Part shown: positions 655 through 45,171 of the stretch, piece after piece
Layout: every line of letters begins with the position of its first letter
How positions within the stretch are numbered: position 1 is the first letter of the stretch
Origin: a virus
Strand: one strand, 5' to 3'
UHGV virus genome: UHGV-0391923
Length of the DNA stretch: 45,227 nt
The notes under the pieces: model-generated
Databases searched by the model: none
Told to the model about the DNA's origin: nothing
What the model saw: the letters and a program-made list of their open reading frames with translations, nothing else
Program-made: the position numbers and the translations under genes

Positions 655-938
655 TGACAACTCTCCACGTCTGTGATGGCTTGACATAAATAAGCACAAT
701 CAATCAGGCTATCGCATAGATTGGCAAGCTCTTTTCTAGCGCCATCAATGCCGCCTAATCTCTCCACCAACTCATAACTTTCGACAAGTCTGCGCAAACC
801 AACAGCATCAATTAAAGTTGGCTCATCCCAAGCATCTCCCGACATGTGTACTGTAAATTCACTCGCATCATCCATCCCGTGAAGAATATTTTTAGCAGCA
901 CCCCACCCAAACTTTTTCACAAACTCATTTGCTTTCAT
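651..938 (-). CDS. hypothetical protein (95 aa)
   Basis: ORF in a coupled minus-strand gene chain. Confidence 0.55.
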   Translation of the reverse strand: MKANEFVKKFGWGAAKNILHGMDDASEFTVHMSGDAWDEPTLIDAVGLRRLVESYELVERLGGIDGARKELANLCDSLIDCAYLCQAITDVESCQ

Positions 939-1489
939 GCCACCATCTCCCCAAGCATCAATCTAAATGCCTTCTCCTGCACAAAATAAGAATAATCCGC
1001 TTTCGATTTAAAAGGCGTTTCCACCGCGATATAAGCCCATGTTCTGATACAACTAACGCCTTCTGACTCTAAAGGTTTAATCGCATCTTCCACTTCTTTA
1101 TCTAGTCCTTTCCATCGCGTTTTAATCCCATCGCCACGGTCAATCTTAAACTCGGCGGTCTGCATCTTAATGTCTTTCAAGTGCGCTTTTGGCAAGTCAA
1201 AAATCAATTCCGCTTCTGTGCCGTCGTCTAGCTCAAGTGTAAGTTTAATGTGCCATTTCTGCTCTAATGAGATTAAACGGTGCTTAATCGCAATGATAAG
1301 GTCACCATCAATATGCGGATATAGTAGCACGGTTGCAACGTCCTCGTCGGGATGGTCTTTAAGCCATTCATCTGTGATACGGTCAATCAGGTCATTGTCG
1401 TACCGCATCCATAAACGGTGAACCTGCATAGACTTGGACTGGATTAACTGGCTGACTTTGTTCGGGTTGTATTTTTTAGTGCGTTTCAT
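935..1489 (-). CDS. hypothetical protein (184 aa)
   Basis: Long ORF with 4-nt overlaps to both neighbours. Confidence 0.6.
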   Translation of the reverse strand: MKRTKKYNPNKVSQLIQSKSMQVHRLWMRYDNDLIDRITDEWLKDHPDEDVATVLLYPHIDGDLIIAIKHRLISLEQKWHIKLTLELDDGTEAELIFDLPKAHLKDIKMQTAEFKIDRGDGIKTRWKGLDKEVEDAIKPLESEGVSCIRTWAYIAVETPFKSKADYSYFVQEKAFRLMLGEMVA

Positions 1490-39790: not shown

Positions 39791-41188
39791 TTAGACAAAA
39801 CTCTGCGTCTGAGATTCCTCAATTCTGATACGTTCTTCATCGAAATCCAGCTCTGGAATTTTACCTGTGGCCATGATCTCATGAAGCGTTTTTGCACTCA
39901 TTCGACCCGCAACAACTTCCGACTGGTAGAACTTCAAATCTTCAAGACTGATACGACCTTTGGCAAAGTCCTGCTTGATTGTGAATTTAGCATCGTTGCC
40001 TGAGCCGTAGAACGCTGCACACCATTTAAGGCAATACTCCATAGCTTCATTCAGGTTCGACACGCACAGCGACAATACAGAGTGATTTGTAGCGTCATCG
40101 GAATTGACCTGTGTTGCGGTCTTATTCACAGCACTGGAATCAAGCAATTTCGCGCCCAAGTCCTGCATATACTGCTTTTTGTCGTCCATTGCTTCTTTTG
40201 CCAATGTGTCAATTGGTGCAGTTGCATAAGTGAATTTTCCACTTCCACGCAATACAAGTGGCGTTGCACTGCCTAGCATCACTCCACCTTTCCCTAGTCG
40301 TTCAGCGTCATCATGATCCAATTCACTAAAAACAGGCTGCACCTGGTTGGTGAAGAACACGGATTGTTCGTACTCAGCACTGTTTCGGTAGTGTGCCAGG
40401 TTGATCTCGGCCACTGGTTCAAGCGGAATCTCGTCAATTGACAGGTCATTCACCTGCGCCCCAATTGGAAAAAACAGGATTTCGTTAAGGCGGTTGCCAT
40501 TGATGGTTGGGTAAATCAAATCCCCTGCAAGCATCTCGCCAGTGCGGTCAGAATAAACCTGAATGGAATATTCATTGTTTTCGTCCAATCGCAATACGCG
40601 GTAATTCGTTACAACCTGCTCTTGGAACTCGTTTAATGGATCGGTTTCCGTGGTGAACTCGCGTAAAACTACAAGTGAAGTCCGAAATTCGTTACCGATC
40701 TTCTTAACTCGCCAGTTAATGATATTAAAAGCATCGTATAACGCCATGATTGGACGTATACCGCGTGTTTGAATGTCGGCAGGTGTTACCCCCCCATCCG
40801 TCACAGGATAGTCCACCAAGAAGCCACCACGCCCGAATTTAAGCAATAAGCCTAAAGCCTTTTGATTGAGCTGATAAATCGAAGTGCCTAGACCGTCTGC
40901 ATTATCCTTGAGGAAATCCATGCCATCGGGGTCAAATGTCGGGTCTTCTGCAAAAGCCAAGCCGATATGCGTCTGTAAAGTGTTCTTTGCAATCGGGTAG
41001 AACACGGCACGTTTTAAATACGCCTGATAGCGATTCCAGTTTGTTTCGTAGTCGCTACAAAAGTTAATCATAGGCAGATACAGCGTGTTTGCTTTCTTGA
41101 CCGCTCTTGAGCCACTACATACGTCCTGCATCATCCGCCATCTGTCGGCATTTTCTAAATATTCTAAATGCTGAAAATCTACTGACAT
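39791..41188 (-). CDS. Portal protein
   Basis: 465 aa, acidic, between terminase and head morphogenesis. Confidence 0.75.
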   Translation of the reverse strand: MSVDFQHLEYLENADRWRMMQDVCSGSRAVKKANTLYLPMINFCSDYETNWNRYQAYLKRAVFYPIAKNTLQTHIGLAFAEDPTFDPDGMDFLKDNADGLGTSIYQLNQKALGLLLKFGRGGFLVDYPVTDGGVTPADIQTRGIRPIMALYDAFNIINWRVKKIGNEFRTSLVVLREFTTETDPLNEFQEQVVTNYRVLRLDENNEYSIQVYSDRTGEMLAGDLIYPTINGNRLNEILFFPIGAQVNDLSIDEIPLEPVAEINLAHYRNSAEYEQSVFFTNQVQPVFSELDHDDAERLGKGGVMLGSATPLVLRGSGKFTYATAPIDTLAKEAMDDKKQYMQDLGAKLLDSSAVNKTATQVNSDDATNHSVLSLCVSNLNEAMEYCLKWCAAFYGSGNDAKFTIKQDFAKGRISLEDLKFYQSEVVAGRMSAKTLHEIMATGKIPELDFDEERIRIEESQTQSFV

Positions 41189-42664: not shown

Positions 42665-42913
42665 TCACGCCTCCACCTCCGCCACAATCTCAAAATAACG
42701 CGCCTTCTCCGCCAAATCATCGTACAAGCAAGGCAATGCGTTAAACTTTTCTACAAAGTCATTCGCTGCGACCACTTCAAAAGCATCGTTAAGATTAATG
42801 CGAACGCCGTCCAGGATAATTGATTCATTTAATGACGGCTTGAATGACGCAGGCAGCGCTTCTTTTAGTGCTTCGATACCGTTTTCGTTTGCGTATTTAA
42901 TTGCTGTGTTCAT
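42665..42913 (-). CDS. hypothetical acidic protein (82 aa)
   Basis: ORF. Confidence 0.5.
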   Translation of the reverse strand: MNTAIKYANENGIEALKEALPASFKPSLNESIILDGVRINLNDAFEVVAANDFVEKFNALPCLYDDLAEKARYFEIVAEVEA

Positions 42914-42915
42914 GG

Positions 42916-43056
42916 TTATTTATCCTGAAATTGATAGGCTAAGAAAAAAGCAAAACACATGATTAACACAACAATAAGGCTAATTGCCGTCGGTTGTGAG
43001 CTGTAATTTATAACCGAGCATATTAAAAACACTGCTTGAAATTGTACTCTATTCAT
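42916..43056 (-). CDS. 46-aa hydrophobic micro-protein (MNRVQFQAVFLICSVINYSSQPTAISLIVVLIMCFAFFLAYQFQDK)
   Basis: Strong RBS AAGGAG-N9-ATG directly behind a TTGACA-N17-CATAAT promoter. Confidence 0.45.
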   Translation of the reverse strand: MNRVQFQAVFLICSVINYSSQPTAISLIVVLIMCFAFFLAYQFQDK

Positions 43057-43081
43057 TTGGTTTATCTCCTTAACTCATGTC

Positions 43082-43110
43082 ATTATGTTATTATAAATAC
43101 TGATTGTCAA
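43082..43110 (-). promoter_or_regulatory. Sigma70-like promoter TTGACA-N17-CATAAT for the accessory operon 43056->41238
   Basis: Consensus -35 and good -10 just downstream of a bidirectional terminator. Confidence 0.55.
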
Positions 43111-43115
43111 GCACT

Positions 43116-43146
43116 AAAAAAGGCCATTAATCGGCCTTGTATTTTC
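43116..43146. terminator. Bidirectional terminator AAGGCCattaatcGGCCTT with A5/T4 flanks
   Basis: Hairpin plus T-runs. Confidence 0.55.
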
Positions 43147-43267
43147 CGCATTTCCGGCATTCCGTTTGCCGAAATATGTCTGATTCGTAATCATAGTGAT
43201 GAAAGCACAGCAGCCTTTTGATAAATGCGATCATAAGAACGACTCCCTATTATTTTTCTTAGGGTAA

Positions 43268-43297
43268 TAAAAAAGCCTTGCATATAGCAAGGCTTAT
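43268..43297 (-). terminator. Strong minus-strand terminator AAGCCTTGCtatatGCAAGGCTT plus TTTTTTATT, downstream of the tRNA
   Basis: 9-bp stem plus T6. Confidence 0.65.
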
Positions 43298-43404
43298 TGT
43301 GCGTAGACATGATTGCAGTCACTCTACACTCTGCTTAAATAAGATAACCATGAACACGATTGACTGAACAACCTGATGCAACCAATAAATTACATCTGTG
43401 GTGT

Positions 43405-43442
43405 AACCGCATGGAATCCATGCCACTATACAGAAATTACAC
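43405..43442. repeat. Direct repeat R1 with a GCATGG/CCATGC hairpin, immediately 3' of the tRNA
   Basis: About 85% identical to 43691..43730 (AACCGCATG..CCATGCC.CTATACAGAAA.TT.CAC). Confidence 0.8.
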
Positions 43443-43453
43443 CCAGATATAAT

Positions 43454-43530
43454 TGGAGCGCCTAGTAGGAATCGAACCCACCTATGTACGGAGTAGAATT
43501 CCGCTGCCTAATCCAATCGGCCATAGACGC
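43454..43530 (-). tRNA. tRNA-Arg (anticodon TCT), 77 nt including an encoded CCA
   Basis: Reverse complement GCGTCTATGGCCGATTGGATTAGGCAGCGGAATTCTACTCCGTACATAGGTGGGTTCGATTCCTACTAGGCGCTCCA folds into a 7-bp acceptor stem, D-loop with GG, anticodon stem GCGGA/TCCGT with loop AT-TCT-AC, and T-arm GTGGG-TTCGATT-CCTAC. Confidence 0.8.
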
Positions 43531-43690
43531 TTAATTACCGCTTTTCGTGTACAGCTCGGCTACTGCGGAAAACCTAGTGAACAAGGTAACACTTGATACA
43601 TTCATACTTTAGCTTGTTATGCTCACAATACGAGTGTATGTGCATTTCACAAGCTCCCGATGTATCACGGGTTTAAACTTTAGTAGAGTG

Positions 43691-43730
43691 AACCGCATGA
43701 AGTAGCCCATGCCCTATACAGAAAATTCAC
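43691..43730. repeat. Direct repeat R2 with a GCATG..CATGC hairpin, 5' of the tRNA
   Basis: See R1. Confidence 0.8.
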
Positions 43731-43917
43731 TCTCTAAAATTGCCAAACTTTCTTGGCGGTCAATTGACTGGCAACGTGCGAATAGTTGCATGATTCGTCT
43801 TAAGCGTATAGTCAGCTTTGAATCTAGCGACCAAACCAAATAAGGCGCTATACTTACTACCATGTCGCGCATGGATTCAATCAATAAGAGAATATTACCA
43901 CTGCACTGCAATAAATG

Positions 43918-45171
43918 TCAATACACTGTCGAAATATTTACATGTTTGGCCATAGGTTTAACAATCGGGAATTGTTTAACAACGTAATACCCTGCTGCAT
44001 CTAAAACATGGTCATGTCCTGTGCTTTTATCTGGCGTTCCGTGCTTATCATAAGCCTGCTGCTCCAGTGCTTCGGTCAAGCTAGGACACATATCAGTATT
44101 GACGAAATACGACCTATCACCGCGACTATTAAGAATCTGCGCGTTAAAGGCATTAATCCGGTCTTTAACTGCTGGGTTATTTCCGTTCACAATTAATCTA
44201 AATCCTGCCGCTCTTAAAATCGCATGGTCGGATTCACTGCTGTTTTTTGATGAAGTCGCCTGGCCTGCTGCATCTGGATAAATATTAATTTGATGATTTG
44301 GGAATCTCTCTTTAATCAGTTTGCACATTGCTGGCGTATCTCTCACGTCCACAAGCTCATCCACAGCATGAGCCTGACCATCACGCAGTACATGCACCAC
44401 AGCGGCCATTTTCAGCACGTTAAAGTCCATGCCAATGTGTAGCACTTCGCGCGGCTTGATAGTTTCTTTTGACTTGTTTAGTTCGCGGTCAAAGTCAGGA
44501 TAAACGCCACCTGAGTTAAGATTGACAAACTTACCATCAAGATAAGCTGATAATAATTGTGGAGGATATGAATCTCTTAAACCATCAATGTAAGACTCTG
44601 GCAAGTATGGGTTTGAATAAGTCGGCGCACGATATAAAACATACTTATCGCTTGCTTTCTTTTCCCAGCGCTCATAGCAGAAACGAAATCCCTCTGGTGT
44701 GGTTCCTACTGCTGCCGTATTGGCCTTGCCATCTGGCTTCTTTTGACGACAACGCGCAATGATCTTATTCCATGCGTTTTCTGCCTTATCCTTTGGCATG
44801 GTGTCAAGCTCATCAATAACAGCATCCCCGATCTCAAAACCAACAATCGAGTTCGGCGCATCCATCGAACGGCAAATGATCTGACCATATCCGTCAATAT
44901 GAAAAACCTTTTCAGATTTATTGAGCTTAAACTTTAATCCGCATTCGGTTAAAAGCTCAGTCAGTCGGGGGAATGCGATCAGGTTGATCAAGTCAAACGA
45001 TGGTGCAAAGTAACCCTGGTTTAATTGAGGATATTGCAGCTTCTGGATTAAAACGCGCTTAAACAATGCTTCTGACTTGCCCGCACCAAAGCCACCACAA
45101 AATAGCGGATATTGCTCAGTTGCAAAAACAAAGTCATCCTGTGGCTCAGTTAAGGTCAGGTCAATCTGCAT
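43918..45171 (-). CDS. terL: Terminase large subunit
   Basis: N-terminal ATPase Walker A FCGGFGAGKSEA; 417 aa; acidic nuclease-like C-terminal half. Confidence 0.8.
   Translation of the reverse strand: MQIDLTLTEPQDDFVFATEQYPLFCGGFGAGKSEALFKRVLIQKLQYPQLNQGYFAPSFDLINLIAFPRLTELLTECGLKFKLNKSEKVFHIDGYGQIICRSMDAPNSIVGFEIGDAVIDELDTMPKDKAENAWNKIIARCRQKKPDGKANTAAVGTTPEGFRFCYERWEKKASDKYVLYRAPTYSNPYLPESYIDGLRDSYPPQLLSAYLDGKFVNLNSGGVYPDFDRELNKSKETIKPREVLHIGMDFNVLKMAAVVHVLRDGQAHAVDELVDVRDTPAMCKLIKERFPNHQINIYPDAAGQATSSKNSSESDHAILRAAGFRLIVNGNNPAVKDRINAFNAQILNSRGDRSYFVNTDMCPSLTEALEQQAYDKHGTPDKSTGHDHVLDAAGYYVVKQFPIVKPMAKHVNISTVY

Follow-up and report, generated by a model that had tools for sequence, protein, structure and literature searches.

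The stretch of DNA analyzed here, UHGV-0391923 (45,227 nt; hereafter the window), is an Acinetobacter phage sequence of ~45 kb whose nearest database relatives at its tRNA locus are phage Acjo_20, the metagenome contig L131 and Obolenskvirus phages. Its single tRNA gene, a tRNA-Arg (tct) found by ARAGORN, lies between terL (open reading frame (ORF) 43918–45171) and the portal gene (ORF 39791–41188) and is flanked by two related elements, R1 and R2, which are our subject. The initial annotation had described a tRNA bracketed by repeats in a 1-kb noncoding region with several terminators. Two related elements do flank the tRNA, and the terminators are correct, but the tRNA, the functional strand of the repeats and all neighboring genes are on the minus strand, and the region spans only ~860 nt (43057–43917), includes a probable 35-codon ORF and is followed by ~10 small ORFs before the portal gene. 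The tRNA-Arg(TCT) call itself holds: both predictors accept the cloverleaf, which has a standard 7-nt anticodon loop and scores 45.5 bits against Rfam RF00005 (gathering score 29). It is 83.5% identical to the tRNA-Arg of Acinetobacter phage Acj9, and because AGA accounts for 108 of the 485 arginine codons in the long ORFs of the phage, the tRNA has plausible work.

The repeats had been noted as 40-bp units (43405–43442 and 43691–43730), each with an inner GCATG(G)/(C)CATGC stem. Both copies contain this stem, and they align with 33 identical positions in 41 columns (80%; 89% over ungapped columns). The composite pattern CCGCATG..CATGCC..TATAC occurs exactly twice in the 45 kb, compared with 0.00 occurrences expected from 100 shuffles. 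These units are real, but each is only the inner part of an element of ~59–60 nt, whose outer stem encloses it (Table 1). R1 begins 3–4 nt past the tRNA CCA, behind an AU-rich spacer. Its outer stem, P1, pairs AUAUCUG-GGUGUAAUU with GGUUACACC-A-CAGAUGU; that of R2 pairs UUUAG-AGAGUGAAUU with GGUUCACUCU-A-CUAAA. The short inner stem, P2, is GCAUGG/CCAUGC in R1 and GCAUGG/UCAUGC, with a G–U closing pair, in R2, and its loop is variable. P1 and P2 are continuous on the 3′ strand, whereas their 5′ strands are split by an 11-nt bulge, giving a 21–22-bp helix with one large bulge. The bulge consensus is U(U)CUGUAUAG(G/U); all other copies are identical here, and only R1 departs from them, lacking one U and ending in U rather than G.

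Folding and comparison both support this architecture. The predicted minimum free energy is −24.3 kcal/mol for R1 (z = −4.4; 22 bp, no mismatches) and −20.2 kcal/mol for R2 (z = −3.9; 21 bp, no mismatches and three G–U pairs). Four of the five copies folded have minus-strand z-scores of −3.9 to −5.5, the fifth, from the IMG/VR contig L002, being at −2.5, and minus-strand folds are more stable than plus-strand folds of the same DNA by 3.6–7.2 kcal/mol. Among 13 Acinetobacter phage sequences, we found nine distinct copies, in which all pairs are standard on the minus strand (18–24 bp, no mismatches); the three to five G–U pairs per copy would be A–C mismatches on the plus strand. P1 comes in three types (GUGUAA/UUACAC, AGUGAA/UUCACU and AAUCAA/UUGAUU), and one P2 position occurs as U–A, as C–G and as the intermediate U–G. 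In the alignment, 99.2% of cells are paired and five of 16 pairs are altered on both sides; control alignments with the partners slid by one to three columns are 25–39% paired. None of 500 shuffles reached the observed covariation score, in a sample whose few independent lineages (about three stem types) limit the statistics. RNAalifold, unaided, gives the same structure.

We built a covariance model from eight copies, leaving out R1 of the window. The model recovered the held-out R1 at 28.7 bits (E = 9 × 10−5), and across the window its only matches are R1 and R2, both of them minus-strand; R2, one of the sequences from which it was built, scored 85.1 bits. We conclude with high confidence that the minus strand encodes the R element as a conserved structured RNA. 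A search of positions 42800–44100 at E ≤ 10 against Rfam 15, whose families include hammerhead, twister, pistol, hatchet, hepatitis delta virus (HDV)-like, ROOL, GOLLD and Y RNA, returned the tRNA as the only credible match; the other matches were far below gathering, and none is the motif. Over seven related loci (E ≤ 1), only tRNAs were credible. Our literature search did not find the motif or the sequence of the adjacent block B (described below) printed in any paper, and it turned up nothing on Obolenskvirus non-coding RNA. The R element is a previously undescribed RNA motif of a familiar general kind, the cis-acting structured hairpin of phages, and its locus is unusually modular and horizontally shared.

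Outside the window, the R element is present in Acjo_20 (L001, PV067699), L002, L131 and eight Obolenskvirus genomes (QH4, phiAC-1, IME284, Brutus, BP10, AB3P2, Highwayman and Acba_21). The repeats therefore recur in related phages with a conserved structure. Confirmed copies are confined to Acinetobacter phages, each in a non-coding locus of the same kind, and the R pattern has no matches in 185,579 bacterial genomes. With ~8 of 142 matching locus-bearing records containing it, mostly from Obolenskvirus, the element is accessory. Single copies occur in phages without a tRNA, and in the eight Obolenskvirus phages the element lies 4–5 nt before an intrinsic terminator. Two candidate extensions were rejected: a 15-base pattern gave at least 120 viral-contig matches, nearly all of them chance occurrences in coding DNA, and a weak model match in L131 (2629–2672) lies inside coding DNA and is regarded as chance. 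A group of unrelated human-gut phages (L016, L025, L057, L123 and L132–L134, from IMG/VR; related to MT835482) has a non-coding element, GGGCAAUC..., in which 20 nt correspond to the R bulge and its flanks (UUUUCUGUAUAGGGCA). Its outer stem is 8–9 bp, P2 is absent, L057 breaks the stem without compensation and the model scores it at 25 bits (E = 0.001); it may be either a distant R relative or a coincidence. In some deposited PHANOTATE-based annotations, among them L127 (1536–1625) and L128 (1499–1591), 'hypothetical protein' genes of 30–40 codons are drawn over the R hairpin and adjacent features. Because of the compensatory-change pattern, these are probably false gene calls.

The outer stems of the element are themselves shared modules. 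In Acjo_20, the R motif precedes a tRNA that is itself enclosed by a P1-type stem. This tRNA (725–796, minus strand) is unannotated; it scores 47.3 bits in Rfam, and ARAGORN cannot name it ('tt' anticodon). By eye, its anticodon loop, UAUUAA, has six nucleotides instead of seven; a 14-bp flanking stem encloses it and a terminator follows. The R2 outer stem (UUUUAGAGAGUGAAU ... AUUCACUCUACUAAAG) recurs in the 97-kb phage Bestia (L135, MW316733) with a different interior of 48 nt, 12 nt past a tRNA-Tyr within an 11-tRNA cluster. A sister stem (GAGAAGUGAAU ... GUUCACUUCAUC) holds differing cargo: the tRNA in Acjo_20, a 29-nt degenerate R-like interior in XC1, QH4 and Bestia and inserts of 50–130 nt elsewhere. 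The tRNA-cluster spacers of Bestia (2050–2900) are full of long stem units and include an unannotated tRNA-like remnant at ~2417–2495; the 3′ CACCA of the tRNA-Tyr can pair with UGGUG three bases downstream, in a hairpin resembling H0 of the window (Table 1).

A related arrangement is found in phiAB1 (L136, HQ186308), a T7-like Friunavirus. The spacer between its gp35 and tail tubular protein A (1195–1345, minus strand) contains block A, a V3 insert as in Obolenskvirus AB3P2 and block B, and the unit is closed by a 17-bp stem, ACUUUAAGAUAUGAUUG/CGAUCAUAUCUUAAAGU, the counterpart of the long-range stem P0 described below. The annotated start of phiAB1 gp36 is inside block B; the true start is probably the in-frame ATG 22 codons downstream, which stands behind AAGGAGG. 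In the bacterial genome collection, block B occurs in one phage-like contig only (L138, CAZPYI010000001.1, 41,575 bp), binned as 'uncultured Streptococcus sp.', which by its size and content is probably a mis-binned complete genome of a Friunavirus-like Acinetobacter phage. With no bacterial matches to the R pattern and block B only in this contig, the modules of the R locus are not host-derived. Stem modules are common to unrelated Acinetobacter phages at 90–100% identity, and by sequence comparison the locus is a mosaic of modules common to four Acinetobacter phage groups: the lineage of the window, Obolenskvirus, Friunavirus and 97-kb Bestia-like phages.

Within the window, promoter, terminator and gene order place R1 and R2 between the tRNA and non-coding segments of one predicted transcript. 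This minus-strand RNA of ~615 nt would comprise, in order, block A, a variable segment V3, the block B hairpin, H0, R2, segment Y, the tRNA-Arg, R1, segment X and a terminator (Table 1). By eye, the extended −10 TGgTATTAT is kept at the corresponding place in Obolenskvirus loci. Their layout is the same, with a similar extended −10 followed by blocks A and B, then H0 and a long stem unit, and finally an R element, a terminator and a strong promoter. The long-range stem P0 joins blocks A and B, and its arms covary, being UUGAUUG/CAGUCAA in the window, UUAUUGAUCG/CGAUCAAUAA in Obolenskvirus and the 17-bp stem in phiAB1. H0 shows a compensatory change between the window (GCCAA/TTGGC) and L131 (GCCAC/GTGGC), and its position is filled by other stem sequences in XC1, Acjo_20 and Bestia. 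For segment Y, there was no Rfam match and nothing similar in the phage collection. ROOL and GOLLD are phage-borne structured large non-coding RNAs that often lie beside tRNA genes. The R locus resembles them as a ~600-nt promoter-to-terminator non-coding unit containing a tRNA, but it has no Rfam match and is a variable string of independent stem modules rather than a single large conserved fold.

Table 1. Features of the tRNA-Arg locus in the order of predicted transcription, with coordinates in the window.
Feature	Position	Strand	Description	Basis
Promoter	43892–43921	minus	Sigma-70 type, TTGACA-18 nt-TAATAT with upstream TG (extended −10); overlaps terL stop codon	Promoter scan, 10/12 matches with TG
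Block A	43862–43886	minus	Conserved 5′ transcript segment; holds P0 5′ arm UUGAUUG (43878–43884)	Conserved in Obolenskvirus loci and Friunavirus phiAB1
Block B	43764–43790	minus	P0 3′ arm (43764–43770) and hairpin GCAAC-N9-GUUGC	27–28 nt 100% identical in many Friunavirus genomes and Obolenskvirus
H0	43742–43757	minus	Hairpin GCCAA-gaaagu-UUGGC, directly upstream of R2	Compensatory change relative to L131
R2	43679–43738	minus	Bulged hairpin: lower P1 5 bp, one bulged A, upper P1 10 bp, 11-nt 5′ bulge UUCUGUAUAGG (43713–43723), P2 6 bp, 6-nt loop	Folding, pairing count, covariance model
Segment Y	43534–43678	minus	~145 nt, non-coding, R2 to tRNA	~97% identical in L131, where Y runs straight into terminator
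tRNA-Arg	43454–43530	minus	Anticodon UCU; CCA encoded	ARAGORN; Rfam tRNA model
R1	43392–43450	minus	Bulged hairpin: lower P1 7 bp, one bulged A, upper P1 9 bp, 11-nt bulge UCUGUAUAGUG (43424–43434), P2 6 bp, loop AUU	Folding, pairing count, held-out model
Segment X	43299–43391	minus	~93 nt, R1 to terminator; holds 14 nt (43344–43357) complementary to start region of ORF 42665–42913	Inverted repeat I1
T1	43265–43295	minus	Intrinsic terminator ending the tRNA/non-coding unit (scan coordinates 43295–43273)	Terminator scan: 9-bp stem, then T run
T2	43138–43120	minus	Second intrinsic terminator	Terminator scan
Second promoter	43110–43082	minus	Strong promoter serving the small ORFs that follow	Promoter scan

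Two further features of the unit concern its downstream end. In the minus-strand RNA, the 14 nt of segment X (GUGUUCAUGGUUAU) are perfectly complementary to AUAACCAUGAACAC (42906–42919), a stretch across the start codon of the gene after next (ORF 42665–42913; 82 aa, no family match), and a one-base bulge would add six pairs covering its AGGA ribosome-binding site. This is the longest complementarity between the unit and the whole window, with ~0.1 such matches expected by chance genome-wide by our arithmetic. Segment X may thus be an antisense small RNA that represses this gene; RNAduplex target prediction with X and Y against all start regions gave no discrimination from shuffles. Conserved in L131 (1–110), the 35-codon ORF (43127–43234, minus strand; MIAFIKRLLCFHHYDYESDIFRQTECRKCGKYKAD) contains a CxxC motif and comes with a good ribosome-binding site, AGGGAG. 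The space between T1 and T2, where it lies, is too short for a separate promoter, so that it would be expressed only if T1 were read through.

We tentatively propose that R1 and R2 are cis-acting processing or stability hairpins akin to RNase III substrates and that the bulge is where they are specifically recognized. In this model, the hairpins would act on the primary transcript, where the bulge would limit cleavage to one strand and add a sequence-specific contact; cutting at or beside them would free the tRNA-Arg and turn segments Y and X into small RNAs with a stable hairpin cap. Because outer-stem frames are common to unrelated phages while their contents differ, the modules may also be joints for the exchange of tRNA and non-coding-RNA cassettes. 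For E. coli RNase III, the idealized substrate measures 22 bp, and a bulge or loop confines cleavage to one strand (PMC3867540). The R helix, free of mismatches, matches this two-turn substrate: its length is 20–24 bp in all but one of the nine copies, the exception being IME284 (18 bp), where a change shortens the lower stem. The proposal also draws on the position of R1 directly behind the tRNA CCA, on the enclosure of tRNAs by the same stems elsewhere and on the related P0 module in the mRNA spacer of phiAB1. In T7, RNase III sites occur in mRNA intergenic spacers. Of the three readings offered by the initial annotation, RNA-processing sites remains the most plausible.

The closest known parallels are the R1.1-type RNase III signals of T7 and the stems of rRNA operons. 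Like these, the R elements are hairpins of about two turns with an asymmetric loop or bulge, and they would lie between functional RNAs of a polycistronic transcript. The T7 signals are present in several diverged copies per genome, as the R elements are, and leave a stabilizing hairpin on their products, as R1 and R2 would. The R elements differ in having no sequence similarity to them and in a larger bulge (11 nt/0) that is strictly conserved; the likeness stops short of class membership, and cleavage is proposed by analogy. Several points weigh against a processing role. The grounds for naming RNase III are limited to helix length, position and analogy, and few independent lineages stand behind the covariation. 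The bulge is strictly invariant, yet RNase III does not depend on any conserved unpaired sequence; this points to another partner, protein or RNA, in place of RNase III or in addition to it. The element also has no fixed neighbor: a copy may precede a tRNA, follow one or stand directly ahead of a terminator, which suits a free-standing functional RNA as well as it suits a processing signal. For the proposed role in cassette exchange, the tRNA indel that distinguishes the window from L131 is not bounded by the R motif.

Such a free-standing RNA is the best-placed alternative, although we consider it unlikely. The hairpin itself would be the product, a small stable decoy or regulatory RNA whose bulge binds and sequesters either a protein, of the host or the phage, or a complementary RNA, a possible target being a host defense or RNA-binding factor. 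A bulge that is 100% conserved while the stems and P2 loop are free to vary is typical of a specific binding site. The accessory distribution described above is also consistent with a decoy, as is the occurrence of the element in slots that hold other structured cargo in other phages, the same outer-stem frame enclosing a tRNA in Acjo_20. However, the bulge has no complementary target in the window at ≤1 mismatch (a search allowing G–U pairs would carry no statistical power), and no co-occurring phage gene was detected. The nearby small ORFs downstream have no recognizable RNA-binding domains and gave no informative Pfam or PHROG matches in a search for a partner protein.

The position of the elements relative to terminators raises the question of antitermination in cis, in which the nascent hairpin would make the polymerase read through terminators downstream. 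HK022 put RNAs, which act in this way, form two stem-loops close to the promoter. R1 lies ~100 nt upstream of T1, beyond which the 35-codon ORF needs read-through, and the Obolenskvirus copies immediately precede a terminator; with put, the R elements share the character of cis-acting phage RNA hairpins, present in two copies and upstream of terminators. They have no sequence similarity to put, however, and are each a single bulged hairpin at variable positions. Moreover, the Obolenskvirus terminator is followed by a strong promoter (TTGAGA-17-TATGAT), so that read-through is not needed, and in the window T2 follows T1. We regard antitermination as improbable.

We think it slightly more improbable still that the R element is a new small self-cleaving ribozyme that would trim the tRNA 3′ trailer and separate the cassettes. 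The precedent is the small theta (HDV-like) ribozymes, of which 1753 examples with a cleavage site beside phage tRNAs are described (Kienbeck et al. 2024, PMC10879173). As with theta ribozymes, R1 is a small structured RNA beside a phage tRNA, plausibly for maturation of the tRNA end; it starts 3–4 nt after the CCA and has an invariant unpaired core between two helices. However, it lacks the HDV-like double pseudoknot and matches no Rfam ribozyme even at E ≤ 10. The fold consists of just two coaxial helices and a bulge, the pseudoknots and multi-helix junctions that characterize known small ribozymes are not apparent, and most R copies are not beside a tRNA.

Function at the level of DNA is highly improbable. 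The repeats would then be duplication scars, ends of a mobile element or DNA hairpins or cruciforms serving replication, packaging or recombination, and the initial annotation had suggested recombination scars from tRNA acquisition. Comparison with L131 bears most directly on this idea. The two sequences are ~97% identical through Y and R2, and L131 is without positions 43298–43533, a ~236-bp indel that comprises the tRNA, R1 and X and that could suggest insertion. Its junctions, however, are at AAT(A/T)AAGC microhomology outside R1 and R2. Because R2 is present in L131 without the tRNA, it is older than, or independent of, the tRNA, and R1 belongs to the tRNA cassette; compensatory changes all along P1 separate R1 from R2, so that the two did not arise by recent duplication. 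Together with the single copies in tRNA-less phages, these comparisons contradict the scar interpretation and indicate that the tRNA is an accessory cassette of which R1 and R2 are not insertion scars. The three stem types differ yet keep their pairing, and the G–U asymmetry picks out one strand, as expected of RNA and not of double-stranded recognition sites. With R2 at the empty site, compensatory differences between the repeats and no copies in the 185,579 bacterial genomes, the elements do not behave as a transposon, a miniature inverted-repeat transposable element (MITE) or a target-site duplication. IS200/IS605-like elements, MITE ends and integron attC sites were rejected on the absence of host copies, the covarying stems and the absence of a recombinase, there being no transposase or integrase near the tRNA locus.

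The locus as a whole is a cassette mosaic between short conserved modules, some with direct repeats, as TCAATCAATAA in L131, and in this it resembles PeSL shuffling (PMC2839356). PeSL cassettes of T4-type phages combine a sigma-70 promoter with a terminator stem-loop and flank protein-coding ORFans (Arbiol et al. 2010, PMC2839356; Comeau et al. 2014, PMC4122927). Like them, the R elements are short stem-loop modules that are repeated in a hyperplastic region, flank small cassettes varying between close relatives and are common across phages. Unlike them, the R elements have no promoter or U-tract, flank tRNA and non-coding cassettes and do not bound the one indel examined, whereas the TCAATCAATAA repeats do flank insertions. 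L131 has two extra inserts relative to the window: 42 nt between H0 and block B (L131 351–400; window 43762) and ~110 nt in block A (L131 505–635; window 43877), the latter flanked by the 11-bp direct repeats TCAATCAATAA and accompanied by a second −10-like sequence, GGTATTAT. These inserts point to cassette turnover at several joints of the locus.

The weakest alternative, that the R elements are promoters for a host or phage RNA polymerase, as also suggested in the initial annotation, is extremely improbable: a conserved TGTATAG(G/T) loosely resembles a −10 box and R2 and R1 each precede a non-coding segment (Y and X), but the promoter scan found no sigma-70 match in either element on either strand, no −35 is seen by eye at a workable spacing, most copies have G in place of the last T of the −10 hexamer, a terminator follows the Obolenskvirus copies within 5 nt and no recognizable phage RNA polymerase is present among the ORFs examined. 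We also set aside a mimic of type I-F CRISPR repeats, to which the resemblance (GTTCAC, TATAG) was superficial, with no shared hairpin. A tRNA-derived minihelix or RNase P substrate was rejected too: the stacking of P1 and P2 recalls that of acceptor and T arms, but neither a T-loop nor a 3′ CCA is present, leaving a mere resemblance.

Phage tRNA genes are usually seen as isolated accessories; here, a tRNA is part of a predicted RNA operon of exchangeable cassettes. The R element, with its covariation and strictly conserved bulge, may well represent a new RNA family that has its own molecular partner. A practical consequence concerns annotation pipelines, which currently place small, probably spurious ORFs over R elements. 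A bolder view, to which we give little credence, is that the bulged hairpin represents a new functional class of phage RNA, either a minimal self-cleaving or protein-guided processing module that allows tRNA and small-RNA cassettes to mature whatever their context or a decoy capturing a host factor, and is the signature of a horizontally exchanged 'RNA cassette island' in at least four unrelated Acinetobacter phage groups. If the bulge is catalytic or captures a host factor, the importance of the R element rises sharply. The identity of its partner would show how Acinetobacter phages, including several considered for therapy against A. baumannii, mature and stabilize their tRNAs and small RNAs, and it could uncover a general way in which RNA genes pass from phage to phage.

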